From: Bacteroidia bacterium
Lineage (GTDB): Bacteria; Bacteroidota; Bacteroidia; NS11-12g; UBA955
Direction of reading: 5' to 3'
Assembly: GCA_040403495.1 (NCBI GenBank)
Contig: JBBAKM010000004.1
Span: forward strand, 23,456 to 87,455
Length of the DNA: 64,000 bases
Shown in pieces: positions 4,723 through 47,148 of the stretch. A model generated the notes under the pieces. That model was not told the origin of the DNA. It was given only the letters and a program-made list of their open reading frames with translations, and ran no database searches. The translations under genes and the position numbers were made by a program. How positions within the stretch are numbered: position 1 is the first letter of the stretch; the number at the start of each line of letters is the position of its first letter.

Positions 4723-4776
4723 AGTGTTATTTCCTTTTTTTGTTTTAAATTTGAATTCTACAAAGATATTACAGAT

Positions 4777-5928
4777 TTGAAATACAGATTGTTTTTTAGT
4801 TTAATAATTGTTTACATGGCTTGTGTCTTTGGCTGGTGGTTGTATTCCTTTATTTCTTTGGTCCGTTCTGAATACACTTTAGAAAAAGAAAATTTAAACC
4901 TAAATGCTTTACTCATCAGAAAGCGATTGTCCCTCGACTTAGAATCAATGAATAATGACTCTAAACTTAGTCCATATCAATTTTATTTAAAAAATAAATC
5001 GATGGTTGATTCTACTATTCAAAAGTTGAATGAAGAATTGTCAACAGAAACTTATTTAATTGTCAAAGACACAAACGCATCATTTTCGGGACTTTATGAT
5101 GTAGTTGTTCATCCAAGGGAGTTTAAACAAAAAGAGAAAAGATACAACTCTAAAAAAAGAGCTTATTATTCTGAGGTCTTGTTTTTTGGCCTTTTAGTTA
5201 TAGCAGGTTCCGTTTGGATTTTCACCAAATTAGAATCTTTACTTAAGTTGAATAAACTGCAAAACAACTTCCTTTTGTCCATTACACATGAGCTAAAAAC
5301 CCCATTGGCTGCTATAAAATTAAGTAGTGAAACCTTGTTAAAGAGGAATTTAGACCCTGAAATGTCTAAACAAATTGTATCACAAACATTGAGTAATGCC
5401 GAGCGGTTGAATGATTTGATAGACAATGTTTTGTTAGCCACCAATATCGACAGTCAAACCTATCAGTTTAAAATGCAATCGCTCAATCTGTCCGATTTAA
5501 TACACGAAACGGCTGATGTTATTTTTGTAGAACCTCATTTTACAGGACAATTGAATATTGAAACCGACAGTCAACGAATTTATGGAGATGAATTGGCTAT
5601 TAAATTGGTTCTTAGTAACATATTCAACAATGCAATTAAGTATGGTGGTGAAAATGTAGTGGTTGATGTAAAAACAGAAACAGAACGCAATACAGAAAAG
5701 TTAATTATTTCTGACAATGGTATAGGGATTGATGTGAAAGAATCGAAACAGATATTTAAGAAATTTTACCGAGTAGGAGACGAAGAAACGCGTGAAACAA
5801 AAGGGACAGGTTTGGGGTTATACATTGTAAAAGAGATTCTTAAATACCACAAAGCGAAAATTGAAATAAAACCTAATGTGCCCAAAGGGACACAGTTTAT
5901 AATAACCTTTAAAAAATTAAAAATATGA
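4777..5928 (+). CDS. Sensor histidine kinase (HisKA + HATPase_c).
   Basis: The product has N-terminal TM segments, an H-box ITHELKTPLAAIKL, an N-box NAIKYGG and a G-box GTGLGLYIVK. Confidence 0.85.
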   Translation: MKYRLFFSLIIVYMACVFGWWLYSFISLVRSEYTLEKENLNLNALLIRKRLSLDLESMNNDSKLSPYQFYLKNKSMVDSTIQKLNEELSTETYLIVKDTNASFSGLYDVVVHPREFKQKEKRYNSKKRAYYSEVLFFGLLVIAGSVWIFTKLESLLKLNKLQNNFLLSITHELKTPLAAIKLSSETLLKRNLDPEMSKQIVSQTLSNAERLNDLIDNVLLATNIDSQTYQFKMQSLNLSDLIHETADVIFVEPHFTGQLNIETDSQRIYGDELAIKLVLSNIFNNAIKYGGENVVVDVKTETERNTEKLIISDNGIGIDVKESKQIFKKFYRVGDEETRETKGTGLGLYIVKEILKYHKAKIEIKPNVPKGTQFIITFKKLKI

Positions 5929-31321: not shown

Positions 31322-33871
31322 ATGGCATTTAAGAACAAAAACACATTTAGAAATGCTGCTGATGACTTTCAGCCAGAGGAGTCTGCTAAAAAAAGTCGTG
31401 TCAAAGGAAACTATTTTTCGTGGTTGAAAGACGAGAAAACCGCCAGAGTAATAGGTGCCTTTTTTGTGCTCTTTTCATTGTTTTTGTTCATGTCTTTTAT
31501 TTCTCATATTGTCAATTTATGGGGATTCGAAACCGATCAAGATTTATTGCTCTCTAATAGTTGGCAGTGGTACAAAACCAATAATCCCAAAGGTGCAGTT
31601 AACATGATGGGTTATTTGGGGGCATGGTTTAGCCACTTGTTTATTCACAAATGGTTTGGAGTTGCCTCTTTTGTGTGGCTATTAACTTTTTTTACATTGG
31701 GTACCAAAATGTTGTTCAATTGGCAATTGTATCCATTGTTAAAAACATTAAGATATTCCTTTTTCATCGTTATTTGGGTGTCAATGTTAATGGGTTTCTT
31801 GTTCTATAAACACAGCTTGTTTATGGGTGGTGGATTTGGTTATTACGGCGTGTCATGGTTGAGCTCATTGTTCGGTAAGTTAGGCGTTGTTCTGTTCTTG
31901 TTGTTGTATGCTTTTATGTTTGCAACTATTGTTTACAATTTAGATTTTAAATCAATTAAAAGAAGTAGTTTAATAGATGACAAGGAATCAAACACACCGG
32001 GTGTGCCGTTTTCTGAACATGAATTGGAAGCAGAGTCTATCAAAAATGAATTTTTAAATCAAGATTCCCCATTTGATGTAACGGCTAGTGAAATAGAAGA
32101 AGAGGATGAAGGTATAGAACTAATAACGATTAATCAAACACCTGAAATAAAAGAAGAAATAGAACTCGAGGAAATGATGAATCCTCAAGTTGTTAGTTTT
32201 GATGTAAACAATACCCCTAAACCAATTTCGAAAACTCAACCGAATTTTGAACTTAAAATAGAAGCACCGCAAGAGGAAGAATTAGTAATTGTTCAACCTG
32301 TAAGCGAACCTGTATTGGATACATCAAATTCTGTCGCTCCTATTACAGCTTCTTTTGGTGATGATTCTCAGTACGACCCACGTTTAGATTTGGCGGGTTA
32401 TCAAATGCCAACCATAGATTTATTGCAGGACTATGAAGTGGCCAAAACAGAGATAGACAGAACAGAACTTGAGCACAGTAAAAACCTAATCATTGAAACA
32501 CTCAAAAACTACAACATTGGTATTTCTGAGATTAAGGCAAACATAGGTCCTACGGTAACTTTATACGAAATAATTCCTGCACCGGGGGTTAAAATTTCGA
32601 GAATTAAAAATCTGGAAGACGATATAGCGCTCAGTTTGGCAGCTTTGGGAATTCGTATTATTGCCCCTATTCCCGGAAAAGGAACCATAGGGATAGAAGT
32701 GCCGAACAAAAAGCCCGAAATGGTCCCTATGAAATCCATGGTGGCAAGTAAAAAGTTTCAAGAGTGTGCTTATGAGTTGCCTGTAATATTAGGAAAAACA
32801 ATATCTAATGAAATTTATATAGCAGATTTAGCCAAAATGCCGCATTTGTTGTGTGCTGGAGCCACAGGTCAAGGTAAGTCTGTGGGTCTTAATACCATTA
32901 TTTGTTCGCTGTTGTACAAAAAACATCCTTCCGAATTAAAATTTGTATTAATCGATCCTAAAAAAGTTGAGTTAACACTTTATAACAAAATTGAAAGACA
33001 TTTCTTAGCCAAATTGCCTGGAGATGGAGATGCTATTATTACTGATACCAAATTGGTGACCAATACATTGAATTCATTGTGTATGGAAATGGATGAGCGT
33101 TACGATTTGTTGAAATCGGCGGGTAAGCGTAATATCATTGAGTACAATACGAAGTTCAAAGAAAGAAAATTATTACCAACAGAAGGGCATCGTTTTTTGC
33201 CATACATAGTGGTAGTGATAGACGAGGTTGCCGATTTAATGATGACCGCAGGTAGGGAAGTAGAAACGCCAATTGCTAGGTTAGCTCAGTTGGCTAGGGC
33301 AGTAGGTATTCACGTTATTTTGGCAACACAAAGGCCATCAGTAAATATTATTACAGGTACTATCAAAGCGAATTTCCCTGCGCGATTAGCTTTTAGAGTC
33401 ACCTCCAAAATAGATTCTCGTACGATTTTAGACAGCAATGGTGCCGACCAACTGATAGGAAAGGGAGATATGTTGTTTAGTACAGGCAACGATTTATTGC
33501 GATTGCAATGTCCATTTGTTGACACCCCTGAGGTGGAACGTATTACAGAATTTATAGGAAATCAAAGAGGATATAGTAGTGCCATGATATTGCCTGAGTT
33601 TAGGGGCGATGAAGACGGTGGTGCAAGAGATGATTTCGATCCTAATGACCGTGATGCTTTGTTTGAAGAAGCAGCCAGATTAATAGTTCAAACCCAACAA
33701 GGCAGTACCTCATTAATTCAAAGAAAATTGAAATTGGGCTACAACAGGGCAGGTCGTTTGATTGATCAATTAGAACAAGCAGGCATAGTGGGTCATTTTG
33801 AAGGGGCCAAAGCCAGAAAGGTATTAATACCAGACGAAGCCAGCTTAGATCAGTTTTTGGATAATATGTAG
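31322..33871 (+). CDS. ftsK: DNA translocase FtsK/SpoIIIE.
   Basis: The product has an N-terminal TM domain, a low-complexity linker, a motor domain (HLLCAGATGQGKSVGLNTII Walker A; VVVIDEVADLMM) and a C-terminal gamma winged helix. Confidence 0.95.
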   Translation: MAFKNKNTFRNAADDFQPEESAKKSRVKGNYFSWLKDEKTARVIGAFFVLFSLFLFMSFISHIVNLWGFETDQDLLLSNSWQWYKTNNPKGAVNMMGYLGAWFSHLFIHKWFGVASFVWLLTFFTLGTKMLFNWQLYPLLKTLRYSFFIVIWVSMLMGFLFYKHSLFMGGGFGYYGVSWLSSLFGKLGVVLFLLLYAFMFATIVYNLDFKSIKRSSLIDDKESNTPGVPFSEHELEAESIKNEFLNQDSPFDVTASEIEEEDEGIELITINQTPEIKEEIELEEMMNPQVVSFDVNNTPKPISKTQPNFELKIEAPQEEELVIVQPVSEPVLDTSNSVAPITASFGDDSQYDPRLDLAGYQMPTIDLLQDYEVAKTEIDRTELEHSKNLIIETLKNYNIGISEIKANIGPTVTLYEIIPAPGVKISRIKNLEDDIALSLAALGIRIIAPIPGKGTIGIEVPNKKPEMVPMKSMVASKKFQECAYELPVILGKTISNEIYIADLAKMPHLLCAGATGQGKSVGLNTIICSLLYKKHPSELKFVLIDPKKVELTLYNKIERHFLAKLPGDGDAIITDTKLVTNTLNSLCMEMDERYDLLKSAGKRNIIEYNTKFKERKLLPTEGHRFLPYIVVVIDEVADLMMTAGREVETPIARLAQLARAVGIHVILATQRPSVNIITGTIKANFPARLAFRVTSKIDSRTILDSNGADQLIGKGDMLFSTGNDLLRLQCPFVDTPEVERITEFIGNQRGYSSAMILPEFRGDEDGGARDDFDPNDRDALFEEAARLIVQTQQGSTSLIQRKLKLGYNRAGRLIDQLEQAGIVGHFEGAKARKVLIPDEASLDQFLDNM

Positions 33872-33998
33872 AACCGAATTAGTATTTAGTTCTAAATGCG
33901 ATAGAGGTTATTAAAATATAATACTTTTGGTGTTAAAATGGTGGAGCGATTAGTTTAAAATATTTACTTGTATTTATTCGTAAATACATAATAGCATT

Positions 33999-34385
33999 TT
34001 ATGCCCATTCTTGTCTAATCTTATATTTCTTAATTATATTATCTTTAGTAATTAGGGTCAAGTTTTCTGTTAGTGCTTGAGAAACAATTAGTCTATCAAA
34101 TGGGTCGCTGTGATGACTTGGTAATTTTGAAAGAGTTAGTAAATGGTCATTCGAAATTTGTATTATCTCGATTTGGTTACGTTCGGTATATTCAAACAAT
34201 TCTTCTAAAGAAATATCTAATGTCAATTTCCCAATTTGATGTTTAATTGTAATTTCCCAGAAACTTGCTATACTCAAGAAACAATGTTCATTAATGTCTT
34301 TTATTTTGGTTTTAATGCTTTCAGGAAGTTGCTTGTCGCCAGCAACAAACCATAGGAAAGTATGCGTATCAAGAAGATATGCCAT
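33999..34385 (-). CDS. vapC: PIN-domain toxin (VapC family).
   Basis: The 128-aa product has MAYLLDTHTFLWF... with conserved acidic residues. Its start overlaps the upstream antitoxin stop. Confidence 0.8.
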   Translation of the reverse strand: MAYLLDTHTFLWFVAGDKQLPESIKTKIKDINEHCFLSIASFWEITIKHQIGKLTLDISLEELFEYTERNQIEIIQISNDHLLTLSKLPSHHSDPFDRLIVSQALTENLTLITKDNIIKKYKIRQEWA

Positions 34386-34588
34386 TAAATATAGTCTTTA
34401 AAAATATCTAATGATTCATCAAAATCTTTGGCAAGCTTAATTTTGCCTTTAGCATATCCAAATTCCCTGAACTTTATTTTGTTCTTTTTCTTATTTTTCA
34501 TTTTAAGAAACGCAACAAAGTCGGCAACTTCTTTTCGAAGTGAGATTGGTAATGACTCAATTTCTATTTTAAGCGATGGGTTGGTCAT
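34385..34588 (-). CDS. vapB: VapB-type antitoxin (DUF2281-like). The start is likely the internal Met MTNPSLKIEI.
   Basis: A small protein encoded immediately upstream of vapC and overlapping it. The ORF track's longer start adds a hydrophobic leader. Confidence 0.55.
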   Translation of the reverse strand: MTNPSLKIEIESLPISLRKEVADFVAFLKMKNKKKNKIKFREFGYAKGKIKLAKDFDESLDIFKDYI

Positions 34589-34754
34589 ACCACAAATATA
34601 CAAAAATAATTTTAAAGTAAATAAGTATTTCCAAAATAATATCATCAAAAACTTTAAGATTATGCTTCCGATATTTCCTGTGTTTGCTTTGTTTCAAATA
34701 ACATATTTGGAAGAATAATTTGTATTCAATTGAAAATACATTAATTTTGAAACT

Positions 34755-34982
34755 ATGAAAACTTTGACAGTAAATATACCCGACAATTTAGATTTGACAA
34801 ATCGGGAATTGCTCATGCTAGTTGCTTCAAAATTGTACGAACAAGGTAAATTATCTCTTGGACAAGCAGCTGATCTTGTTGGATTATCTAAGCGAACTTT
34901 TGCTGAGTTATTACATCAATACAATGTTTCTGTTTTCAATTTTCCGACATCAGATTTAATAAGTGATGTAAAGAATGCGTAA
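34755..34982 (+). CDS. UPF0175-family antitoxin.
   Basis: The 75-aa product has ...LMLVASKLYEQGKLSLGQAADLVGLSKRTFAELL..., typical of UPF0175. It overlaps the downstream DUF3368 gene by 8 nt. Confidence 0.75.
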   Translation: MKTLTVNIPDNLDLTNRELLMLVASKLYEQGKLSLGQAADLVGLSKRTFAELLHQYNVSVFNFPTSDLISDVKNA

Positions 34983-35430
34983 GACCATTATCTCAGACAC
35001 AAGTTGTTTAAATGTTTTGTCAAATATTGGTGAACTTGAATTGTTAAAAAAAGTATATGATCAAATTATAACAACCTCAGACATTGAAAATGAATTTGGA
35101 GAGGAATTGCCTGATTGGATAGTTGTTGAAAATGTAAAAGACCTATCCACTCAAAAAGTATTAGAACTTCAGATAGATAAGGGAGAATCTAGTGCCATTT
35201 CATTGGCCTTGGAGTTGCCAGACAGCACTTTAATTTTAGATGATTATAAAGCTAGAAAAATTGCTCAATAATTAGGTCTTAAAATTACAGGAACAATTGG
35301 AGTAATTGTAAAAGCTAAATTAAATGGGATTATCCCTTCAATAAAACCTTACATTGAGAAAATAAAAGAAACAAATTTTAGAGTTTCTGATGAAATAGAA
35401 ATTGAAGCTTTAAAACAGGCTGATGAGTAA
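34975..35430 (+). pseudogene. DUF3368-family (PIN-like) toxin gene interrupted by an in-frame TAA at 35269-35271.
   Basis: The N-terminal 98 codons end ...DDYKARKIAQ*. The same frame continues directly as LGLKITGTIGVIVKAKLNGIIPSIKPYIEKIKETNFRVSDEIEIEALKQADE*, the conserved DUF3368 C-terminus. That makes this a single nonsense change in a full-length toxin. Confidence 0.7.
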
Positions 35431-35570
35431 GATTTAAAAATGACAGCTAAGTAGTTTGGCTGTTCAAATATAGCTTTTTTTGGATTTTCAAGTGTCTTAT
35501 AATTACACTTAACATAATCTTATAAAAGGAATAAGATTGTATTTTAAAAATTACTTATTCTTGTAGTACA

Positions 35571-35831
35571 ATGAAAATTGATAAAACGGTTTTTGGTATG
35601 TATAAAAAAGTCGAAAAACCGAATGTCTTTAAATATTGGCAAACTAAAACGGTTAAAGAAAGACTTCTTGCAGTAGCCTATTTAAATAGTGTGGCATTTA
35701 ATTACGATATCAATAATCCACCTAAAGTTGATAGAACGGTATTTTCTATTGAAAAAAGAGAGAAAAGAATAATTAATGATTTAAAATGGCAAAACAATCT
35801 TCAGCAAGACCTCTTGATATCAATGATTTAG
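35571..35831 (+). CDS. Hypothetical small protein.
   Basis: The 86-aa ORF has no recognisable domain and lies inside the TA island. Confidence 0.3.
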   Translation: MKIDKTVFGMYKKVEKPNVFKYWQTKTVKERLLAVAYLNSVAFNYDINNPPKVDRTVFSIEKREKRIINDLKWQNNLQQDLLISMI

Positions 35832-35894
35832 AAAATTTGAATTAAAATTTTTAATTAAAATTACATATTTTATTAGCTCTTTTTTAAATGTTAG

Positions 35895-35992
35895 CATCAA
35901 GTTAACCCTCCAAAAGTTAAGCTTTTTGGAGAGTTGATTATCCAAAAAGACAGATATTCGGAGAGTTGACTCTCCAAAAGTAGGGAATTTTG
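35895..35992. repeat. Cluster of three related hairpins sharing a TCCAAAAG core.
   Basis: The hairpins are CTCCAAAAgttaagctTTTTGGAG, GGAGAGttgaCTCTCC and TCCAAAAgtagggaaTTTTGGA. They lie between two convergent genes and none has a U-tract. Confidence 0.4.
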
Positions 35993-36025
35993 GATATTTG
36001 TTTTATTTTAATATTGTAACTTGTA

Positions 36026-36373
36026 TTACTTTATTTTATTGATAAGCTTTTGATTTTGATCTCTCAAGTATTTATTTTCTTCTTTCAATAGCTTAATTTC
36101 GTTTTCTTGAATCATTAATTGATGGATATATCCATAATTGTAATTAACTGAGTTTTCTGAATTATTGAAATTGTTAGTTACGTTATTGCTGAGAAGTTCA
36201 TTAAAATCGATTTCATAAATTTTAGCAAATTTAATCAACTTAGAAATATCTGGTTTAATTTTGCCAGTTTCAATTTTACTGTAATCTGATTGTTCAATTC
36301 CAAGCTCTGATGCAATTTTTTGCTGATCCCAACCTTTTTCTAGTCTTAATTTTTTTAGATTTTTGTGTATCAT
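36026..36373 (-). CDS. XRE-family helix-turn-helix transcriptional regulator with a C-terminal coiled-coil.
   Basis: The product has LKKLRLEKGWDQQKIASELGIEQSDYSKIETGK (HTH_3). It is divergent from the first lipoprotein/OMP module. Confidence 0.8.
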   Translation of the reverse strand: MIHKNLKKLRLEKGWDQQKIASELGIEQSDYSKIETGKIKPDISKLIKFAKIYEIDFNELLSNNVTNNFNNSENSVNYNYGYIHQLMIQENEIKLLKEENKYLRDQNQKLINKIK

Positions 36374-36486
36374 TATTAATATATTTGTTTTATTTTTTTA
36401 GGAAATTATGAAGACTCAATAAATTTAATTATTTTCGATTCGTTATTTTAAATATTGATTCAAACACTAATGAAAAAAACTCGCAT
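36347..36486 (+). promoter_or_regulatory. Leader/promoter block, copy 1, shared by both lipoprotein-OMP modules.
   Basis: Bases 36391-36486 (tatatttgttttatttttttaggaaattatgaagactcaataaatttaattattttcgattcgttattttaaatattgattcaaacactaatgaaaaaaactcgc) are near-identical to 39936-40034. Confidence 0.6.
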
Positions 36487-37713
36487 TTGAAAGGTAATAA
36501 AATTTTATACATTTTAATTGTTTTTCTATCAATGTCATGTTACAAAGAATACAAGATAGAAAATAAAAGTTATTATGTAATGACTGGAGGGATAGTTAAT
36601 GGCTATCCCCCTTTTTTTATCCTATATAAATGTGATTTGTTTTCTACTACAAAACTTCCATATTCTGAATTTGATATAGTAGTTTCAGATGATTTCGGGA
36701 ATGTAGATTCAATGGTTAACGGATTGTTCAATAAAATAATTGGTATACCTGGACGTTCATATTTAGTTAAATGGAAGCTTAAGTTTGATGATACATGGAA
36801 TCAGTTTAGTAAGCAAATGCCGGCTTTTAATATAGATGCTTATAGTGGGTATGTTGAAAATTCAAAGTATAAAGTAAATTCTCCAGATAATTATGAATAT
36901 TTTTTGGCTTACAAATCAAACAATTCAGATTATTTCAATTTGTTTATAGATGGGTTATTCAACCCAATTGATATAGGTAGTGCATTTTTTAAATTAGATA
37001 AATCAAACAATACACTAAACATCTGGCCACCTGCAAATATAGAGATTTCAAATTCAGATAGAAAGGGTATAGAATTTACAAATTATAATTGTTACAAACC
37101 ATTTATTTGGGAAAAAAAGTATTTTAAGTTTGGAAATAAAACAGATGAATTTTTTTTAAAAGACATTTTGTCATTATACTCTGTAAATCAAAATGATATG
37201 CAGAATATAGTGAATGGGAGTTTTAATTTTGCTTATCAAGATCAGCCGTTGTTTATAGGCGAATCGGTAAAATATGATACAAAAAGGAATAATCAATATA
37301 CTATAACTTATTTCATTACAAGTTATAAGGATTTTAATTTTGATAAAGTTGTTGACACCTCTGGTTCAGTTGATTTTGAAATAAAACTAAATAATCAACC
37401 ACTAGATTTAACTAAATATGAAATTGGAAATGTTGGATTTAACATATTGGATAATGATAATTTTAAATTTAATAATATTTACAAATTCTTCGATTCAAAT
37501 AAAACAATCGGCAAATTGTTTAATAAAGATTTTGTAGATTATGTTTTTAATAAAGAAAGTAAAAATAATCAATGTGTTGTTAAGTCAAGTTATAATATTA
37601 GAGTAGTAGTTTATTTTTATGAAAGGTCAAATCCTAATATTAGAAAAACACATTTTGAATTATTAAATTATGATAAAAGCGTTAATAAAATCCAAATAAA
37701 TTTGATTGATTGA
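36487..37713 (+). CDS. Lipoprotein of unknown function (module 1, partner A).
   Basis: The 408-aa product has a lipobox FLSMSCYKEYK and is a ~25-30% identical paralog of the 40035-41210 product, with shared motifs KWKL, NIWPP and CYKPFIW. Its stop overlaps the downstream OMP start (ATGA). Confidence 0.6.
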   Translation: MKGNKILYILIVFLSMSCYKEYKIENKSYYVMTGGIVNGYPPFFILYKCDLFSTTKLPYSEFDIVVSDDFGNVDSMVNGLFNKIIGIPGRSYLVKWKLKFDDTWNQFSKQMPAFNIDAYSGYVENSKYKVNSPDNYEYFLAYKSNNSDYFNLFIDGLFNPIDIGSAFFKLDKSNNTLNIWPPANIEISNSDRKGIEFTNYNCYKPFIWEKKYFKFGNKTDEFFLKDILSLYSVNQNDMQNIVNGSFNFAYQDQPLFIGESVKYDTKRNNQYTITYFITSYKDFNFDKVVDTSGSVDFEIKLNNQPLDLTKYEIGNVGFNILDNDNFKFNNIYKFFDSNKTIGKLFNKDFVDYVFNKESKNNQCVVKSSYNIRVVVYFYERSNPNIRKTHFELLNYDKSVNKIQINLID

Positions 37714-39866
37714 TGTTTGATGTCAAATTTATATTATTTTTTGTTTTTCTGCTGGGTTGTCAGTTATTAAAAGGGCAAAGAGATAATATAGTAGTTGTGA
37801 AGGTTGTTAGTTTTAATAGTCAAGAACCAATATTTGGAATTAAACTAAATATTGAAGATAAAGATTATCAAACAAATTCAGATGGCATTGCAAATGTTTA
37901 TCTCAAAAATAGTATTGGGTTTTTGAAAATATACAAAGGGGATAGTTTAATTAAAACCAGTCGATTGTTTGTTTATAGAGATACATCTATAACAATCGTT
38001 ATTGATGAACAGTATTTTGAAATTGAAAAATTTAAGTTAGTTGGTAATAAGAGCTTTAAAGAATTAGATAACAAAATTTCAATACCTATGAATTTGATAA
38101 AGACTTCGGTTTTGCCTTTATCAACAAATGATCCAATTCATCTTTTAAAAATGCTTCCCGGTGTTTCTACAGCTCAAGAAATGAATTCAAATATAAATGT
38201 AAGAGGCGCATCTTCATATAATACATGTATTTATCTTGATAATGTTCCTGTTCCAAATTTATCTCATAGCTTTGGATTAATTAGTTTTTATGATAATAAC
38301 ATTATAAGGCATATTGATTATTTTAACAATCAAATTTCTTCAGCTTTTGGTACAAGGGGGTCAAGTTATTTCAAGTTTTTTTTAAAAGACCCATTACTTA
38401 ATAAAAATAAAGGTGAATTTATAATTAATCCATTTTTTGTGACTGGTAACGCCAATTTAAAAATGCTAGAAAATAAATTTGGTTTATTTGTTAATTATAG
38501 AAAATCGATATTGTCTGAGCAATATAATGCATCTTTTCCGCTTTTTTCAAATTTTCAAGATGTGTTAGTGAAATCAAAATTTAAAATTAAAGAGAACTCA
38601 CATTTGTCAATATTTTATATGGATAGTTATGACAAAAGTTATAACTCATATGGTTTTGGATTAAATGTAAAAGATAGTGTTTTATCAAGGTTTAAAACAT
38701 TTTCAGTTGTGTTTAATAAAATGAATAAAAGGGGCTTTTCTCAAACAATTAGTGGGTTTATAAAATCTCAATTTCTGTCTAGAACAAACAATAACTTCCT
38801 TGATGTCACATTGAATAATAAACTAGATGAATATAATGTATCGTATTTGAATAGCAAATCCTTAAATAAGTATTTTAAATTTCTTTTTGGATTTGAAAAT
38901 CAATTTCATAAAAGTGAAAATAAAATTGATTCTTTTAATTTTAATAATCAAAAAAACAACATAAGTTCTTTGTTTTTTGATATTGAATATAAAAAAAATA
39001 ATTACAAGGTGTTTGCTAATGTTAGACCAAATTACTTTGTTTCCCTCAATGAAATATATTTTGAAGCAAGATCTGGAATATTGAGAAAATTTAATAATCT
39101 GGGATTATATACAGAGGTAAATAGGTATGTAAACTCAATTCATTCGTTATCAAATAATCTTTTTGCAATTCCTGAAGATTATAGATTTTTACCTACAAAA
39201 GTGTTTAAGCCGCAAACAACAAATGAGATACTTATTGGTTTGAAATATTCAAACCTTAGAATAAACTTCTCATCAAATTTTTACTATAGGGTTTACGATA
39301 ATAGCTATGATTACAAAAAACTTTATTTATCTCCAATTAACAAACTTTCGAATATATCAAAAGTGGATTTTAATAGTTATGGTATAGAAAATTTTGTTAG
39401 CATTAAGATAAGTAAGTCAAATTCAATGAATTTGTCATATACATATTCAAAATCAACAATGTATAATGATTCAATTAATTTAGGAATAAAATATGTTTCA
39501 AATTTTGATAGGCCTCACATTTTAAATGCATTTTATATGTTTAAATATAAAAGAATTACATTTACAACTTCTTTTATATTTAAAAGTGGTAGGCCATATA
39601 CAGCGCCATTGTATGTTTTGAATAATATCCCCTTTTATTCAAACAGGAATGAGTTTAGGTTGCCTGTTTTTCATAAACTAGACATCGGAGTTCTCTATGA
39701 ATTTAAATCAAAGGTTTCTCAAACTCTACAGTTTCACCTGTATAATGTCTATTCACGTAATAATATTTATGCTGTTGTTTTTAATTCTTCTTTTTCTAAT
39801 CCTGAATTTAAGTATTTTTCAGCTTTCCCATTTCTACCATCCTTCTCTTACAGTATTAAATTTTAG
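37710..39866 (+). CDS. Outer-membrane beta-barrel protein with an N-terminal CarbopepD_reg-like domain and a TonB-dependent-receptor plug-like domain (SusC-like, short form; module 1, partner B).
   Basis: The product has a signal peptide and the plug-like region SVLPLSTNDPIHLLKMLPGVSTAQEMNSNINVRGASSYNTCIYLDNVPV. The C-terminus ...AFPFLPSFSYSIKF ends in Phe. The last ~50 nt are identical to the 41207-43366 gene. Confidence 0.7.
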   Translation: MMFDVKFILFFVFLLGCQLLKGQRDNIVVVKVVSFNSQEPIFGIKLNIEDKDYQTNSDGIANVYLKNSIGFLKIYKGDSLIKTSRLFVYRDTSITIVIDEQYFEIEKFKLVGNKSFKELDNKISIPMNLIKTSVLPLSTNDPIHLLKMLPGVSTAQEMNSNINVRGASSYNTCIYLDNVPVPNLSHSFGLISFYDNNIIRHIDYFNNQISSAFGTRGSSYFKFFLKDPLLNKNKGEFIINPFFVTGNANLKMLENKFGLFVNYRKSILSEQYNASFPLFSNFQDVLVKSKFKIKENSHLSIFYMDSYDKSYNSYGFGLNVKDSVLSRFKTFSVVFNKMNKRGFSQTISGFIKSQFLSRTNNNFLDVTLNNKLDEYNVSYLNSKSLNKYFKFLFGFENQFHKSENKIDSFNFNNQKNNISSLFFDIEYKKNNYKVFANVRPNYFVSLNEIYFEARSGILRKFNNLGLYTEVNRYVNSIHSLSNNLFAIPEDYRFLPTKVFKPQTTNEILIGLKYSNLRINFSSNFYYRVYDNSYDYKKLYLSPINKLSNISKVDFNSYGIENFVSIKISKSNSMNLSYTYSKSTMYNDSINLGIKYVSNFDRPHILNAFYMFKYKRITFTTSFIFKSGRPYTAPLYVLNNIPFYSNRNEFRLPVFHKLDIGVLYEFKSKVSQTLQFHLYNVYSRNNIYAVVFNSSFSNPEFKYFSAFPFLPSFSYSIKF

Positions 39867-40034
39867 ATTTTTGTGTATCATTATTAAAAAATAGAATATA
39901 TTCATCAAAAATTGAATTTTTTGATGAATATATTTGTTTTATTTTTTTGGGAAATTATGAAGACTCAATAAATTTAATTATTTTCGATTCGTTATTTTAA
40001 ATATTGATTCAAACACTAATAAAAAAACTCGCCT
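39862..40034 (+). promoter_or_regulatory. Leader/promoter block, copy 2, with a palindrome-containing insertion.
   Basis: This copy matches copy 1 but inserts aaaatagaatatattcatcaaaaattgaattttttgatgaatatatt, which contains the perfect inverted repeat TTCATCAAAAAttgaaTTTTTTGATGAA. It also retains the first ~7 codons of the XRE gene in reverse complement (gtgtatcat). Confidence 0.6.
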
Positions 40035-41210
40035 ATGAAATTTAAAATCATTCTTTTTTTTATCGTTTTAACTCAAATAAGTTGTTACAAAGATTACGAC
40101 TTAATAAAGCAGGAATATTATTTTTTAAGGGGTTTGTTCGTCAATGGACAATCCCCTTCCTTTCAATTGTATTTTCAAAACACACAAGGCGATTATAAAG
40201 TAAATTATACTGACTATCAACTAGAGGTCATTAATGAAAATAATTCTGTTTTTAAAATGAATTCAAATGGTAACTTTTCTTTTTTATCTATAAAGCCTAA
40301 TTCTAAATACAAAGTGAGATGGAAATTAAATAGCGAGAAAGAATGGCACGAGCTTACCAAAGAGTCTATTAACTATGAAACAACGTTAAATGACAAATCA
40401 TTTGTTAAAGTCGAAAATGAATTGTTTGTTAATAGAGATAGAAATGATTCTTTTGTTTATTTTTTATACAATCCATATGATAGAAAGACTTTTGAAGAAC
40501 AGTTTTTAAAATCTTTTTTGATTGAATATCCCGATGCATTTCTTGAATTAAATCAAACAGACAATGCATTGATTTTATGGCCACCTTCCAATAAATATTA
40601 TTTAGATAGATTTAAAAATTCAACTAACTTTTGCTTCAAACCATTCACTTGGAAAATGTTAAGTGGGCCTGTATATAGTAATTTTCAACTTTATAGTATG
40701 TCTAAATCGGATTTTCAATTTTATTATAATTTACATAAAAATGATGTAGGAAAAAATACGCCTTTGGCGGTTGGTGAAGGCATATTGTGGGATTACAGTA
40801 AAGACAATGTAAAAGCCAAAATAGTCAATATTAACAATTATAATAATATTAAAATCTTTGATTATGTTAACAGAGATGAAAGGTTGTATGTTGATTTTTT
40901 AATAAATGGCAACTCAATAGATACATTAAGTCATAGAATAATTAGCGTTAATATGAGATTTGAAAAATCCGAAAATTCTTTTCCAGTTATGGGATGGCAA
41001 AATAAAACTGTTTATGCTGGTACTAAAGAATATTTTGCGCATCACTTCAACGAGAATTTCAATAAACCATGTGGTTATTTTAACAATATTTATAAATTGA
41101 GGTTTTTTGTATATCTTCATGATTTAAAAACAAACATAAGAACAAGTATTGAAATGCCAACATTCAACTACACAAAAGGCGAAAGTGTAGTTTTAGATAT
41201 TAAACCATGA
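40035..41210 (+). CDS. Lipoprotein of unknown function (module 2, partner A).
   Basis: The 391-aa product has a lipobox LTQISCYKDYD and is paralogous to the 36487-37713 product. Its stop overlaps the downstream OMP start (ATGA). Confidence 0.6.
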   Translation: MKFKIILFFIVLTQISCYKDYDLIKQEYYFLRGLFVNGQSPSFQLYFQNTQGDYKVNYTDYQLEVINENNSVFKMNSNGNFSFLSIKPNSKYKVRWKLNSEKEWHELTKESINYETTLNDKSFVKVENELFVNRDRNDSFVYFLYNPYDRKTFEEQFLKSFLIEYPDAFLELNQTDNALILWPPSNKYYLDRFKNSTNFCFKPFTWKMLSGPVYSNFQLYSMSKSDFQFYYNLHKNDVGKNTPLAVGEGILWDYSKDNVKAKIVNINNYNNIKIFDYVNRDERLYVDFLINGNSIDTLSHRIISVNMRFEKSENSFPVMGWQNKTVYAGTKEYFAHHFNENFNKPCGYFNNIYKLRFFVYLHDLKTNIRTSIEMPTFNYTKGESVVLDIKP

Positions 41211-43366
41211 AAAAAATATTTGTATTTTCTCTTTTATTTCTGTGTTTAGTATTAAAAAGCCAAACATTACATCAAATAAATTTTAAGTTTTTAGACCAAG
41301 CAAACAATCAACCGATTTCTAATTTACTAGTCAAATGCCAAAATACTGCAGCGTATAGTAATTCAGATGGTTTTGTTTCTGTGTTCTTACATTCAGATAC
41401 CTGTACGTTTCGTTTTTATGAATCAGATATATATTTACAAGAGTACAAATTAAAAGCATATAATGACACTTTTATAGTATTGAAAATAGAACGCATTTAT
41501 GAAATAAGTAAGTTTAAGCTAAGGGTAAATCACCAGCCCATAACTGCTAAAAATAACAGAATTTCTATAGGTCAAAATACACTTCAGTCTATTTCATTGC
41601 CACTAAGTACCAACGACCCAATTCATTTATTAAAAACATTGCCCGGGGTTAATACCAGTCAAGAAATGAATGCTAATTTAAATATTAGAGGTGGAAGTGC
41701 TTACAATACAGTCTTTTATTTAGATAATATTCCTGTGCCTAATTTAACTCATAGTTTTGGTTTATACAGTTTTTTTGATTTGAATACTATCAGACAAATT
41801 GATTATTTCAATAATAATGTAAGTAGTGAGTATGGCTCTAGGGGTTCAAGTTATATAAAATTTTATCTTAAAGACCCAATTGCTAATAAATCAACATCAG
41901 AGCTGAATATTAATCCTTTTTTTGTTAGTGGTAATGTTAATTTGAAGTTAAAAAAAGAAAAATTGGGTGTTTTTGTTAATTACAGAAAATCAATTTTCAA
42001 CACTGAATATAATGTTCTTTTCCCTCTTTTTTCGGAGTTTTCAGATTTATTGATTAAAACAAAATATAACTTTAACAAAAGGTCGTCATTAAGTTTAATA
42101 TACACCGATAATCAAGACAGGGTTACTGATTTTAATGCAACGGGAATTAACTCAAGAGATAGCTTACAATGGCAGTTTAAAGCCTTTTCATCACAATTTG
42201 ATTTAATCTCTAAAACTGGCGTAAAACATGAAGCAATTTTTTTCATTAAGAATCAAGTATTGTCAAGGCAATCTTTGAATAATCAGTTTAATTACAATAA
42301 CGAATTTAATGAAATGAACTTTAAATATTCGTTAAAGAAAAGTTTTAGCCAGAATTTTAAATCATCATTAGGCTTAGAACATCAAATTCATCAAAATAAT
42401 AATTCAATAGCTTTTAACAATAAAACCATCAATAATTTGAATGTTTTATCACTTTATACGGATAACTCATACCAATTTAAAAACTTGATTTTTAATGCTA
42501 ATTTAAGGTTGAGTAATTTTATAGAATTAAAGAAAACCTATTTGGAAAAAAGGTTAAGTGTAAATTATAAGCTCAATAAGTCGAATTTTATTGCGGAATA
42601 TAATTCTTTTGTTAATTCTACACATAGTTTGGTCAACAATGTTTTTCCCGTGCCTGATGATTTTAAGTTTTTGGCGAATAAAGATTTTTTGCCTCAGGTA
42701 ACTAATGAGTGGTTGATTGGCTATAATGTTCAACTAAAAAAATCAAATCTACAATTAAATGCTTATCATAGAAATTATCTAAATAGCTATGATTACAGAA
42801 GATTGAATATTGATAATTATGCCTCATTTAGCAACGTTTTTAAGATGAATCATATCAGCTATGGGGTTGAAGCTTTGTCAAATATAAACATTAACGAAAA
42901 GCATAGTTTTGTTTTGTCCTATACTTATTCAAAATCTACGATGCAAAATGATTCAGTCAATTTAGGTTTATTATATCCAACTAGTTACGACAGGCCACAT
43001 AATTTTAATTTATTGTATAGTTTTAAATATAAAAGATTTACGTTTACTAGTACTTTTACTTGGCAAAGTGGTAGGGTTGCTACGGTACCTTTATTTGTAG
43101 CTTACGCTAATGCTACCCCAATTTATTCTCTAAGAAATGAGTATCGTTTAAAACCTTTTCATAAAATGGATATTGGTTTTCAATACAGTTTTAGAAATAA
43201 AGGTAAAATTAAACAGTTTTTAAATGTTAATTTGTACAATGTATATTTTCGTCAAAATACTTATGCTGTTGTATGGGAAAGTAACAACAATACTAGATCT
43301 GCTGAACTAAAATATCTAACAGCTTTCCCATTTCTACCATCCTTCTCTTACAGTATTAAATTTTAG
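41207..43366 (+). CDS. Outer-membrane CarbopepD/plug/beta-barrel protein (module 2, partner B).
   Basis: The 719-aa product is ~65% identical to the module-1 protein in the plug region (ISLPLSTNDPIHLLKTLPGVNTSQEMNANLNIRGGSAYNTVFYLDNIPV). It has the identical C-terminal TAFPFLPSFSYSIKF. Confidence 0.7.
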   Translation: MKKIFVFSLLFLCLVLKSQTLHQINFKFLDQANNQPISNLLVKCQNTAAYSNSDGFVSVFLHSDTCTFRFYESDIYLQEYKLKAYNDTFIVLKIERIYEISKFKLRVNHQPITAKNNRISIGQNTLQSISLPLSTNDPIHLLKTLPGVNTSQEMNANLNIRGGSAYNTVFYLDNIPVPNLTHSFGLYSFFDLNTIRQIDYFNNNVSSEYGSRGSSYIKFYLKDPIANKSTSELNINPFFVSGNVNLKLKKEKLGVFVNYRKSIFNTEYNVLFPLFSEFSDLLIKTKYNFNKRSSLSLIYTDNQDRVTDFNATGINSRDSLQWQFKAFSSQFDLISKTGVKHEAIFFIKNQVLSRQSLNNQFNYNNEFNEMNFKYSLKKSFSQNFKSSLGLEHQIHQNNNSIAFNNKTINNLNVLSLYTDNSYQFKNLIFNANLRLSNFIELKKTYLEKRLSVNYKLNKSNFIAEYNSFVNSTHSLVNNVFPVPDDFKFLANKDFLPQVTNEWLIGYNVQLKKSNLQLNAYHRNYLNSYDYRRLNIDNYASFSNVFKMNHISYGVEALSNININEKHSFVLSYTYSKSTMQNDSVNLGLLYPTSYDRPHNFNLLYSFKYKRFTFTSTFTWQSGRVATVPLFVAYANATPIYSLRNEYRLKPFHKMDIGFQYSFRNKGKIKQFLNVNLYNVYFRQNTYAVVWESNNNTRSAELKYLTAFPFLPSFSYSIKF

Positions 43367-43399
43367 ATTTATTCATTGTAGGTAGGGGCTTTAAGTTAT

Positions 43400-43720
43400 A
43401 TGTTTAAACAAGCCAAGTTGCTAACACAAAAAATATTGCAAATGAAAAAAAATAGTATCTTTGAGTATTATTTTTTTCAAATGAAAGCTGAGCACAATGT
43501 AAATAGTCAAAAATTAGAACTTATTCAATGGCTTTCTACTATAGAAGATCAATCTACCATTGAAAAGCTGATTGAATTTAAAAATAAAGAAAATAAAGAT
43601 TGGTGGGATTCACTCTCTAAAAAAGAAGAACAATCAATAAATAAAGGAATTTTAGATGCAGAAAAAGGAAATCTAAAATCCCATTCAATTGTAAGAAACA
43701 GGTATGAAAAGTGGTTATAA
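43400..43720 (+). CDS. Putative antitoxin-like small protein (addiction-module-component-like C-terminus).
   Basis: The 106-aa product has ...DWWDSLSKKEEQSINKGILDAEKGNLKSHSIVRNRYEKWL. It sits immediately upstream of a decayed ParE/RelE-like ORF. The true start may be the internal Met MKAEHN. Confidence 0.35.
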   Translation: MFKQAKLLTQKILQMKKNSIFEYYFFQMKAEHNVNSQKLELIQWLSTIEDQSTIEKLIEFKNKENKDWWDSLSKKEEQSINKGILDAEKGNLKSHSIVRNRYEKWL

Positions 43721-43730
43721 CGTATTCTAG

Positions 43731-44002
43731 ACTGAAAATGCCCTAATAGAATTAGAAGAAACTATTAAATACTTAGAAACCAATTGGACAAATATTGAAA
43801 TCCAAAATTTATTTGAAAATTTAGATAGAACGATAACCCTACTTTCTAAAAATCCATTAATTTTCCCATTAAGTCATAGAAAAAAGGTTAGAAGAGTGGT
43901 TTTCTCTCTTTAAATACTTTGTATTACAGAGTTGTAGATGGTAGGGTAGAAATATTATCGTTTTTTTCAAATAGGCAAAACCCTGATAAAATCAACATTT
44001 AG
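43731..44002 (+). pseudogene. RelE/ParE-family toxin remnant with no start codon and a -1 frameshift near 43905.
   Basis: Frame 1 reads ENALIELEETIKYLETNWTNIEIQNLFENLDRTITLLSKNPLIFPLSHRKKVRRVVFSL*. The shifted frame reads LYYRVVDGRVEILSFFSNRQNPDKINI*. The second half matches the conserved RelE/ParE C-terminus (Y-R-V-x-D-x-V-E-I-L-x-I-x-H-x-R-Q-x-P). Confidence 0.5.
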
Positions 44003-44022
44003 TAATAGTAATAGCTTGTTAC

Positions 44023-44100
44023 TCTTTTTCTAATCCTGAATTTAGGCACTTTACAGCTTCCACATTTCTACCATCCTTCTCTTACAGTATTAAATTTTAG
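44023..44100 (+). pseudogene. Orphan 3'-terminal fragment of a third lipoprotein-partner OMP paralog.
   Basis: The sequence ctttttctaatcctgaatttaggcactttacagcttccacatttctaccatccttctcttacagtattaaattttag aligns to 39788-39866 and 43289-43366. It translates in frame to SFSNPEFRHFTASTFLPSFSYSIKF*. Confidence 0.65.
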
Positions 44101-44223
44101 ATTTAATTGTCTTTTTGTCCTGCTATTCACAGTAATAGTGTTATTTAATAGAAGTGTTCCTTTAAACAAACTCATTTTGGAACACTATTTGGATAGCTTG
44201 AATAATAAATAATAGTATTAAAT

Positions 44224-44907
44224 TTGCGCCCAATGAAAATTAAAGTCCTTTTTTCTTTTTTGATTCTCGTGTTAATGTCCTTTGTAGCTACACCACCCAA
44301 AGTGGAAAAAGACAAAGATGCCAACAAGTTATTGAAAGATATTTCTAAAAAATACAAAGCTTATACCTCTCTTAAAGCCGATTTTACAATGTTGAACGAA
44401 CCTGCCGATGGTAAAAAAAGTACCACCGAAAAGGGCTCTTTGTGGTCGAAAGGGAATAACTTTAAACTGAATTTTGGAGGTCAACAGATTTTTTGTAACG
44501 GTAAGTTTATATGGACTTATACCGCCGAAACCAATGAGTGTGTTAAGGATAATTACAATCCCAATAGCTCAAAAGGAATTAACCCTACCAAATTATTTAC
44601 TATTTGGGAAAAAGGGTTTTTATACATCAGTGAAGGAACATACAAAAAAGGCACTTCTATTATTTCTAAAATAAAACTAACCCCAACCGACAAATCTGTT
44701 CCTTATTTCTTAATGAACTTAGAGGTTGACAATACCCTTAAAACATTGCAAAGTATGAAAGTATCATACAAAGCAGGCAACAAACAAACCTACACTATCA
44801 CTCAACAAAAAGCCAATGAGGCTATTTTGGACAAGGAGTTTGTGTTTGATGCAAGCAAATACAGCGGTGTAGAAATCATCGATTTAACCAGTAAGTCAAA
44901 AAAATAA
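44224..44907 (+). CDS. lolA: LolA-like outer-membrane lipoprotein carrier protein. The start is probably the Met at 44233 (MKIKVLF).
   Basis: The product has a signal peptide and ...LKADFTMLNEPADGKKSTTEKGSLWSKGNNFKLNFGGQQIFCNGKFIWTY..., typical of LolA/LppX-fold proteins. lolA normally neighbours ftsK. Confidence 0.75.
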   Translation: MRPMKIKVLFSFLILVLMSFVATPPKVEKDKDANKLLKDISKKYKAYTSLKADFTMLNEPADGKKSTTEKGSLWSKGNNFKLNFGGQQIFCNGKFIWTYTAETNECVKDNYNPNSSKGINPTKLFTIWEKGFLYISEGTYKKGTSIISKIKLTPTDKSVPYFLMNLEVDNTLKTLQSMKVSYKAGNKQTYTITQQKANEAILDKEFVFDASKYSGVEIIDLTSKSKK

Positions 44908-45989: not shown

Positions 45990-46277
45990 ATAAAGTGTTA
46001 TTTCTTCTTCTTCTTTGTATATTTTACACCCTAGTAAACTCTATTAATGTGGAAAATAGATAGGTGTATTTATAGGCTGACTTATCGCTATTTTATTACG
46101 AGATAATTCAGTTATATGGTTCTTAACATATTAGGAAAATGTTACCTTGTGTTTTAATGTTAAATTTACTTAATGTGCTATAGGGTAATTTACATGTCAA
46201 AGATTTAGTGTTTTAGTCATATAAATGGTAGCAAATTTTTTATTATCTTTGTAAAATAGAAGTTTTTAAATATAGTT

Positions 46278-46451
46278 ATGGAAGAGAAGCAAATAAAACT
46301 ACTTAAAGCATTAGCTAAAAAGATTGAGTCCAAAAAGAGAGAAAGGGCTGTTGTTATGTTTTCTCTTAAATCTGCTAAAATTCTCACCAAGGAGGAAAAT
46401 TTTACAGGGCATTTGAAAAATCTTGATAAAGTCTTTGCCACTGCCGAATAA
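46278..46451 (+). CDS. Small ORF of 57 aa, below the ORF-track cutoff, translationally coupled to the next gene.
   Basis: The ORF reads MEEKQIKLLKALAKKIESKKRERAVVMFSLKSAKILTKEENFTGHLKNLDKVFATAE. Its stop overlaps the downstream ATG (TAATG), and a purine-rich stretch lies upstream. Confidence 0.35.
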   Translation: MEEKQIKLLKALAKKIESKKRERAVVMFSLKSAKILTKEENFTGHLKNLDKVFATAE

Positions 46452-47086
46452 TGTATCGTAATCGTCCAAATTTATCAATTGGATTTCACGGATGTGACCT
46501 TGCTGTAATGCAAGAATTAGTATCTAATCCAGACAAAGTGAAAAAGAGTCAAGAAAAATTTGATTGGCTGGGTAATGGGTTTTATGTTTGGGAAAATAAT
46601 CAAGCAAGAGCTTTGAAATGGGCGGTTGATAAAAAGCAAAGAGGAGGACAACTGAAATATCCAGCTGTCGTAGGTGTTGTATATCAACTTGATTATTGTT
46701 TAGATTTAACAGATTCAGAATCGATTGAATTACTTCCTACCTACTACAAATTGATGAAGGATGATTTATCCATAATGGGCAAGAATATTCCAGAAAATAG
46801 AAATGTAAATGGAGATAAACATCATGACCTTGTTATTAGGGAATTAGATTGCGCTGTTATAGAATATATGCATCAAAAGATTGATGAGGAAATTAAATCT
46901 GATTTAGAAACAAAAGGGTATTCTGAATATAGGCATTTTGATACAGTAAGGGGGATATTTACCGAAGGAGGTCCAATTTTTGATGGTGCAGGAATTCAAT
47001 CTAAAAACCACATTCAAGTTTGTATTAGGAACTTAAATTGTATCAAAGGCTTCTTTATGCCAAGAAAAGAAAGTAAATTTCCTTAA
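46451..47086 (+). CDS. Hypothetical protein with a conserved GFY-type motif (possibly DUF3990-like).
   Basis: The 211-aa product carries ...IGFHGCDLAV...GNGFYVWENNQARALKWA.... It lies in an AT-rich gap after trhO. The family assignment is from memory only. Confidence 0.4.
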   Translation: MYRNRPNLSIGFHGCDLAVMQELVSNPDKVKKSQEKFDWLGNGFYVWENNQARALKWAVDKKQRGGQLKYPAVVGVVYQLDYCLDLTDSESIELLPTYYKLMKDDLSIMGKNIPENRNVNGDKHHDLVIRELDCAVIEYMHQKIDEEIKSDLETKGYSEYRHFDTVRGIFTEGGPIFDGAGIQSKNHIQVCIRNLNCIKGFFMPRKESKFP

Positions 47087-47148
47087 AAGCAATTTGCTTT
47101 TAAATTTGAATTTCTAACAATTGTAAAATTCCCTAAAAAAACAATAAT

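Follow-up and report, generated by a model that had tools for sequence, protein, structure and literature searches.

The 64,000 nt of DNA analysed here (the window) carry two genes for outer-membrane proteins, OMP1 and OMP2, upstream of lolA, and between OMP2 and lolA a noncoding stretch in which the 3' end of both genes is repeated in frame. The question raised by this locus is how a gene end came to lie at this site without its gene. A sequence-only reading of the same DNA had assigned the fragment to a third OMP paralog, and had taken the repeated block as the homology arm through which modules are duplicated or deleted. Both proposals are weighed below against related loci (given by L numbers), all of which are on short-read metagenome contigs that can break or misjoin at repeats.

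The orphan tail and its parent genes

The sequence-only reading had described a 78-nt block at 44023-44100 that is shared by three ends. The copies are real, but the block runs 4 bases further, to 44104, and a repeat search recovered an 82-nt family with three copies in the window (Table 1). With the end of OMP1 as the reference, the orphan copy is 93% identical and the end of OMP2 is 80% identical. The terminal 42 nt (CATTTCTACC...TTTTAGATTT; in full CATTTCTACCATCCTTCTCTTACAGTATTAAATTTTAGATTT) are present in three exact copies with 0 mismatches, against a chance expectation of 0.00 (100 dinucleotide-preserving shuffles, none of which gave a match), so that the noncoding block does repeat the 3' end of both OMP genes in frame, as had been claimed. 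The orphan frame reads SNPEFRHFTASTFLPSFSYSIKF* and is open for only 36 codons since the preceding stop. The further claim that one block of about 80 nt ends both genes stands for OMP1; OMP2 is identical to OMP1 over the last 51 nt only, and in the preceding 31 nt, where the two genes are strongly different, the orphan is OMP1-like.

Within the orphan, positions 44063-44104 are identical to both intact gene ends. Positions 44045-44062 carry six changes of the window lineage, and the conserved FPF motif is broken; this private patch (RHFTAST) was absent from every intact tail seen, and no donor was found for it. The orphan of L021, a relative without module 1, matches the OMP1 tail of the window at 80 of 82 positions, and because of this match the orphan is identified, by sequence, as an OMP1-type tail. 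It lies directly 3' of a decayed ParE gene (43704-44002), so that the stretch is non-coding yet is no empty spacer, and on its left side it is bounded by a non-homologous junction (44022/44023). In the alignment, the stop codon is gone from the orphans of L035-37, which also carry many substitutions, and the orphan of L034 is nearly identical to the adjacent intact tail and has a core of the L002 type. The orphan is a dead, non-functional remnant of a receptor gene's 3' end. When a degenerate codon pattern of the tail was run against 185,579 species genomes (a set that leaves out the source genome), the only two matches were L002 and a gene of Portibacter that is unrelated; OMP2 and P0001, looked up as exact sequences, matched no contig.

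Table 1. Features at and around the orphan tail, followed by the island layouts of the window and of related contigs (positions refer to the window)
Feature	Position	Strand	Description
Orphan 3' tail of an OMP1-type, predicted TonB-dependent transporter gene	44023..44104	+	26 codons, stop and 4 nt
Intact OMP1 tail	39789..39870	+	copy most similar to the orphan
Intact OMP2 tail	43289..43370	+	last 51 nt with OMP1-type variants GCT, CTA, CCA, AGT, TAGA
Left copy of the tail-to-lolA spacer	43371..43427	+	alpha' 43371-43413 (homologous to the L002/L034 spacer) and diverged motif m 43414-43427
Right spacer and motif m	44105..44183	+	spacer 44105-44167; m (AAACTCATTTTGGAAC) 44168-44183
ParE-type toxin-antitoxin cassette	43428..44022	+	antitoxin 43484-43720, toxin 43704-44002, then 20 nt
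Module 1	36487..39866	+	lipoprotein 36487-37713 (408 aa, no family match) and OMP1 37710-39866 (718 aa); 4-nt overlap
Module 2	40035..43366	+	lipoprotein 40035-41210 (391 aa) and OMP2 41207-43366 (719 aa); 4-nt overlap
IG1, upstream intergenic repeat	36375..36486	+	104-nt core 36375-36478, 97% identical to 39924-40027
IG2, upstream intergenic repeat	39924..40034	+	core 39924-40027
Inter-module junction J	39861..39935	+	copy of the first 21 nt of the XRE gene and 18-bp perfect hairpin
XRE-family HTH gene flanking the module array	36026..36373	-	first 21 nt duplicated in junction J
Variable island	33871..44175	.	between ftsK 31322-33871 and lolA 44233-44907; 10,305 nt, against 63 nt in L004
Layout, window			OMP1 and OMP2 modules, decayed cassette, orphan
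Layout, L004			no island
Layout, L002, L023, L024, L025			ftsK, PIN, DUF2281, AAA_14/DUF4143, lipoprotein, OMP2-type gene, spacer alpha, lolA; no cassette, no orphan (L002, L025: right-hand part only)
Layout, L026 (2.95-Mb contig)			L002/L023-type layout minus the PIN/DUF2281 pair
Layout, L021, L022			XRE, IG, lipoprotein 2, OMP2, cassette with intact ParE, orphan, lolA; no module 1; 99.0% identical to the window over 6 kb
Layout, L034-L037, L039			lipoprotein, OMP1-type gene, intact cassette, orphan, spacer alpha, lolA; module 88.7% identical; some contig ends cut
Layout, L018, L019			OMP2-type gene, junction J, 446-aa gene, another lipoprotein gene
Layout, L035, L037, L038			tail core and J upstream of a further three-gene module

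Each parent gene forms a module with an upstream lipoprotein gene, and the coding DNA of the two modules is only 35-78% identical (60-nt windows). The Plug domain PF07715 was detected in OMP1 (26.6 bits) and OMP2 (34.9 bits; cutoff 23.9); the OMP genes had no match to Pfam TonB_dep_Rec, to NCBIfam or to sequences in the PDB. An AlphaFold2 model of OMP2 (pLDDT 77.5, pTM 0.73; residues 681-709 of low confidence) was compared with the PDB using Foldseek, which returned PirA, Cir, FepA, PfeA and BtuB (E 1e-21 to 1e-19, TM about 0.6). Solved TonB-dependent transporters are 22-strand barrels enclosing a plug, and OMP2 is accordingly modelled as a beta-barrel of this type around a plug. The family comprised 13 clusters at E<=1e-70 among 5.8 billion proteins, and the OMP genes form a divergent, rare subfamily of TonB-dependent transporters. 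All members, and the orphan, end in the C-terminal beta-signal ...PSFSYSIKF, with an aromatic last residue. The variable patch of the tail probably lies just before the last barrel strand; by the general topology of TonB-dependent transporters it may correspond to the last extracellular loop, which is put no more firmly because the AlphaFold2 model is unreliable at residues 681-709. Neither partner lipoprotein (408 and 391 aa) had a Pfam or NCBIfam match. Only three homologous clusters were found for lipoprotein 2 (40035-41210) among 5.8 billion proteins, and in the distant relatives L030 and L033 the lipoprotein-transporter pair is located in unrelated chromosomal contexts.

Both modules are bracketed by conserved linkers, namely the 104-nt intergenic block upstream (IG) and the 51-nt tail. 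The IG element (about 100 nt) had no Rfam match and is probably a promoter or leader; in L023 and L026 its conservation is about 90%, against 50-70% for coding DNA. Between the modules, the first part of junction J (39861-39881) matches the first 21 nt of the XRE gene (36353-36373), and a perfect, AT-rich hairpin of 18 bp lies 3' of the OMP1 stop at 39894-39935 (dG -19.8 kcal/mol, z -5.1). This hairpin is missing from the otherwise identical junction of XRE and IG1, and J with the hairpin was also found 3' of the OMP2-type gene of L018.

The variable island and exchange within it

Scanning metagenomes for LolA gave 14 loci, and in 13 of these ftsK (849 aa in the window) was directly beside lolA. 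One of the relatives, L004, has 98% LolA identity and DNA that is about 97% identical on both flanks but carries no island, and the backbone that it has in common with the window starts at 44176. Because L004 has 63 nt in place of 33871-44175, the orphan is placed at the right edge of an island set in the ftsK-lolA spacer. In addition to the modules and the cassette, the island holds a PIN/DUF2281 pair, a UPF0175 gene followed by a 98-aa ORF (no family match), the XRE gene and three 32-nt palindromic repeats.

Several observations on this gene content and its surroundings may be recorded here. The antitoxin-like UPF0175 gene and the 98-aa ORF (stop at 35272) lie within 34657-35532 and are absent from L021, which has 195 unrelated nt instead. 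The three 32-nt repeats (35900-36003) are tandem imperfect palindromes (CTCCAAAA...TTTTGGAG) that adjoin the 3' end of the XRE gene and are about 86% conserved in L023 and L026. A second strain-variable spot is located at 45990-47148, between a rhodanese gene and TspO, and contains ORFs of 57 and 211 aa in the window, L001, L026 and L034, a 277-aa KilA-N gene in L021, L023 and L024, and nothing in L002 and L004.

Five island layouts were found in related lake metagenomes (the variants are listed in Table 1; the contig of L038, which has an OMP1-type module, ends just past the gene). Close relatives have 0, 1 or 2 modules, of the OMP1 or OMP2 type, and this variation in number and type bears out the earlier claim of module turnover. 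The window and L021/L022 differ by the presence or absence of module 1, with breakpoints in the IG repeat (36375-36486 / 39924-40034) and not in the 3' block; in L021/L022 the intergenic block has two IG1-type markers and then runs into lipoprotein 2. Recombination between IG1 and IG2, as reconstructed from these markers, would account for the presence or absence of module 1. Since the only gain or loss that could be mapped uses this upstream repeat, the proposal that the 3' block serves as the homology arm for duplication and deletion of modules was not upheld. An assembler jump across the IG repeat was considered as the cause of the missing module in L021/L022 and is regarded as unlikely: two independent assemblies agree, and only 12 nt separate the IG1-type marker from the first base specific to lipoprotein 2, a distance too short for a k-mer path switch if the IG2 of that population equals that of the window.

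Exchange was also found on a much shorter scale, within the tails. OMP1, OMP2 and the orphan core of the window share GCT, CTA, AGT and TAGA, whereas the orthologues (the OMP1-type gene of L034; OMP2 of L002 and L026) carry GCC, CTC, AGC and TAGT. At the sites of the OMP2 tail, variants of the OMP2 type are kept in L002, L023, L026 and L018. Because the paralogues share variants that are absent from their orthologues, the paralogous tails within one genome are, on this pattern, homogenised by gene conversion; the orthologous tails differ, and the perfect identity over 42 nt therefore does not come from constraint at the nucleotide level. A second trace is given by L002 and L023, which are about 100% identical over most of the module, with a fall to 79% in its final 150 nt. 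Their divergence stems from a patch of roughly 75 nt just before the core, in which L002 equals L026 and L023 equals L018. The earlier description of the orphan as a recombination footprint is supported, and the variants shared by the paralogues and this 75-nt patch show that the block itself is recombinationally active. Over 6,084 nt, 58 differences separate the window from L021, and 8 of them are crowded into 23 nt of the orphan (44045-44067). Whole modules would likewise be exchanged, added or lost by homologous recombination in the conserved linkers (IG, junction J and tail).

The toxin-antitoxin cassette and the origin of the orphan

The insert between OMP2 and the orphan (0.6-0.65 kb) contains the two cassette genes only, with no integrase or other recombinase, and its upstream region is common to the window and L034. 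The antitoxin (78 aa) is intact in the window, and the start of the toxin gene (43704) overlaps the antitoxin end (43720), as it does in L021 (antitoxin 4771-5049, toxin 5033-5332). No Pfam or NCBIfam match was obtained for the antitoxin; its 151 homologues were mostly from Flavobacterium and Aquirufa, and one was named addiction module component. The intact toxin orthologue of L021 matched PF05016 ParE_toxin with 26.3 bits (cutoff 23). The toxin of the window is dead, with TGG changed to TAG at 43728-43730 (codon 9) and a 1-nt deletion after 43901, and a series of decay can be followed from the intact gene of L021 through L020, which has the TAG only, to the window, which has the TAG and the 1-nt deletion, the antitoxin ORF remaining intact. 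The stored gene call of L020 (376-678) reads through two TAG codons, and looks like a gene-caller artefact because TAG is a normal stop here (ftsK and both OMP genes end in TAG).

In the alignments, the cassette is bracketed by direct repeats of roughly 150 nt (43289-43427 and 44023-44183), each composed of tail, spacer and motif m. Beyond the tail, the evidence for the repeat consists of shuffle statistics on short sequences: the two spacer copies are about 70% identical with indels, strict scoring found no homology between spacers, and significance was reached only with scoring suited to about 70% identity. The spacer at 43371-43413 matched the tail-to-lolA spacer of L002/L034 with a z of 5.5 (0/5000 shuffles). 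Elsewhere, motif m, AAACT(T/A)AGTTTGGAACG, stands where the chromosomal backbone begins before lolA; in L034 a 17-nt copy of it also closes the spacer on the left side of the cassette. OMP2 stays a full-length ORF beside the insert. Unoccupied sites, in which receptor gene, spacer and lolA follow each other with neither cassette nor orphan, were found in L002, L023-L025 and L026.

The orphan and the cassette occur together. In a six-frame scan of all loci, gene-less tails were confined to the window, L020 and L021, to which alignment added L034-L037 and BLAST added L039; the orphan is therefore present in independent assemblies (L020, L021, L034-L037). It was found in every variant that bears the cassette and in none without it (L002, L023-L026 and L018 lack both). 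The junction of toxin stop and orphan is homologous across all cassette variants and the orphan is always OMP1-like. The unit formed by cassette and orphan lies 3' of an OMP1-type gene in L034-L037 and L039 and 3' of OMP2 in the window, L021 and L022, which is a further sign of recombination in the block.

The orphan is probably the relic of the right copy of the 150-nt repeat that brackets a ParE cassette set between the last receptor gene and lolA. DNA carrying the cassette and its own copy of tail and spacer would have recombined via that homology, either by a single crossover of a circle (Campbell-type) or by homology-anchored recombination, leaving the receptor gene with a whole 3' end and the other copy of the tail stranded. 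The integration would be old because the orphan is common to sublineages that are about 81% to 99% identical across the region. The stranded copy would subsequently have decayed, as in L035-37, or have been kept up by short-patch conversion from intact tails, as in the window and L034, and such conversion would leave the last 42 nt of the orphan identical to both intact genes. Upstream of the cassette, lipoprotein-transporter modules would have been swapped, gained or lost via IG, J and tail. The order of the spacers adds a complication, as the window reads tail, alpha', m', cassette, orphan, other spacer and m, and L034 reads tail, other spacer, m', cassette, orphan, alpha and m. The spacer types thus seem swapped between the two, which needs two integrations or a later recombination.

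Derivation from a third OMP paralog, as first proposed, would mean that a third complete module once stood between the cassette and lolA and was deleted, possibly via unequal recombination through the block, so that 82 nt were left. Such a history is in keeping with the in-frame reading of the orphan and its ending in the C-terminal signal of the family, with the existence of tandem module arrays (the window and L018; in L035/L037/L038 core and J precede a further module) and with module numbers that differ among strains. However, in the 16 island-bearing contigs examined that position was always without a gene, and even lineages with no more than about 81% identity have the toxin stop joined to the orphan at one and the same junction. 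A deletion would not lead one to expect a duplicate of spacer and motif m on the left side of the cassette, and had the recombination run through the block, it would have produced a complete gene end in place of a fragment whose left edge is non-homologous. No third paralog is needed for an orphan that is OMP1-type, tied to the cassette, joined to it at the same left junction and old; a deleted third module is possible but unnecessary, and is considered unlikely.

Similarly doubtful is an origin in which the orphan came in with the cassette as an element-borne copy, not as a displaced chromosomal tail, and the window lineage integrated the element via motif m instead of the tail. A circle of tail, spacer, m and cassette would give the orders of both the window and L034, depending on the site of crossover. 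Once m is removed, however, the likeness between the right spacer of the window and the left spacer of L034 is weak (z 2.6, 184/5000 shuffles, p about 0.04), as is the beta assignment that it would support, and the L034 order could also result from later homologous import of lolA and its spacer from a cassette-less relative by a single exchange within the orphan, whose core in L034 is of the L002 type. Nothing points to transport by a phage or plasmid, the block being absent from viral contigs and the ParE toxin from plasmids. Att-like repeats at the two ends of the 10-kb island were also considered and discarded, as their similarity was not significant (z 1.2-2.2).

A more far-reaching reading, which is regarded as improbable, takes tail core, J and IG together as a dedicated cassette-shuffling scaffold for the surface receptor pair. 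As a silent partner, the stranded tail would trade with the expressed genes the stretch that precedes the last barrel strand, and the ParE cassette would ride the same repeats, moved by homologous recombination without a recombinase. If true, this would amount to a receptor-variation system kept under phage pressure in a free-living freshwater bacterium. Antigenic variation from silent cassettes is known from Neisseria pilS/pilE and Borrelia vls, and the locus resembles these systems in having a truncated, unexpressed copy beside expressed genes with which short patches are swapped. It differs from them in having a single silent copy, a private patch (RHFTAST) found in no intact gene and no dedicated recombination machinery; membership is not supported, given that the orphan patch 44045-44062 is absent from the intact tails seen.

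It is very improbable that the block is kept for a nucleotide function of its own, as a terminator, small RNA, lolA regulatory site or recombinase target. Identity of 42 nt in three copies, including 4 nt past the stop, in genes otherwise 35-78% identical would suit such a function, but the orthologous tails differ at 3-5 synonymous sites within the same 51 nt, the orphans of L035-37 are heavily decayed, and lolA retains the 57 nt upstream of it in L004, which has no island. The fold of the orphan is no better than that of shuffles (z +0.47), and no Rfam match or terminator-like site was found in it, by which a functional RNA or terminator is ruled out. A chance match or assembly artefact, to which the AT-rich genome and the breaking of short-read contigs at the block (L001, L020) might point, can be dismissed, as 0/100 shuffles gave a match and other samples and studies, assembled independently, show the structure as well.

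Comparison with known systems and significance

For a relic of cassette integration at a gene end, the nearest parallel is icd/icdC at the ends of the cryptic prophage e14 of E. coli K-12, where a C-terminal fragment is left as a pseudogene (PMC13626634). In both cases (and also with phage 21) the insert is located at the 3' end of a gene, the gene remains complete, a homologous C-terminal fragment lies beyond the insert, and the two copies are direct repeats able to recombine (PMC13626634). Here, in contrast, the insert is a 0.6-kb toxin-antitoxin cassette without an integrase, the repeat includes a non-coding spacer, no excision product was seen, and the copies are homogenised with a second paralogous gene. 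By analogy, the insert acts like the e14/icd type; membership is not claimed, because the insert has only the two cassette genes and no integrase.

At the scale of the whole locus, a comparison can be drawn with replacement flexible genomic islands of aquatic bacteria, which are exchanged by homologous recombination (Lopez-Perez et al. 2014, PMC4033161). Shared features are the fixed site between core genes (ftsK and lolA) with content that differs in close strains, the surface-exposed products, and a mosaic identity with sharp changes. The differences are that module number varies (0, 1 or 2) and that linker repeats (IG, J and tail) are present internally. With varied content found at the same site, the locus behaves like a replacement flexible genomic island, and phage pressure may be linked to the variation between ftsK and lolA. 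Concerted evolution of paralogous OMP genes offers a further parallel, in that the paralogues carry common derived variants in a short block; here one of the three partners is dead and the tract is about 45-51 nt.

No new mechanism is revealed by these findings. The orphan records frequent recombination, and as a scar in a variable island it is of an ordinary kind. A practical consequence concerns receptor-gene counts in metagenome-assembled genomes (MAGs), which are unreliable because the block breaks short-read assemblies. The contig of L001 starts inside the block, and that of L020, which is 775 nt long, comes from another sample and is 99% identical to the window, runs from within one core copy to within the next; from these contig ends it follows that short-read assemblies break at the repeat.

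For the biology of this uncultured freshwater member of the Bacteroidia, the locus provides a clear natural case of the rebuilding of a flexible island, in which modules are swapped through short linkers. A toxin-antitoxin pair would have been captured together with a duplicated gene end and would then have decayed stepwise, and the dead fragment appears to be kept like its live paralogues by conversion.
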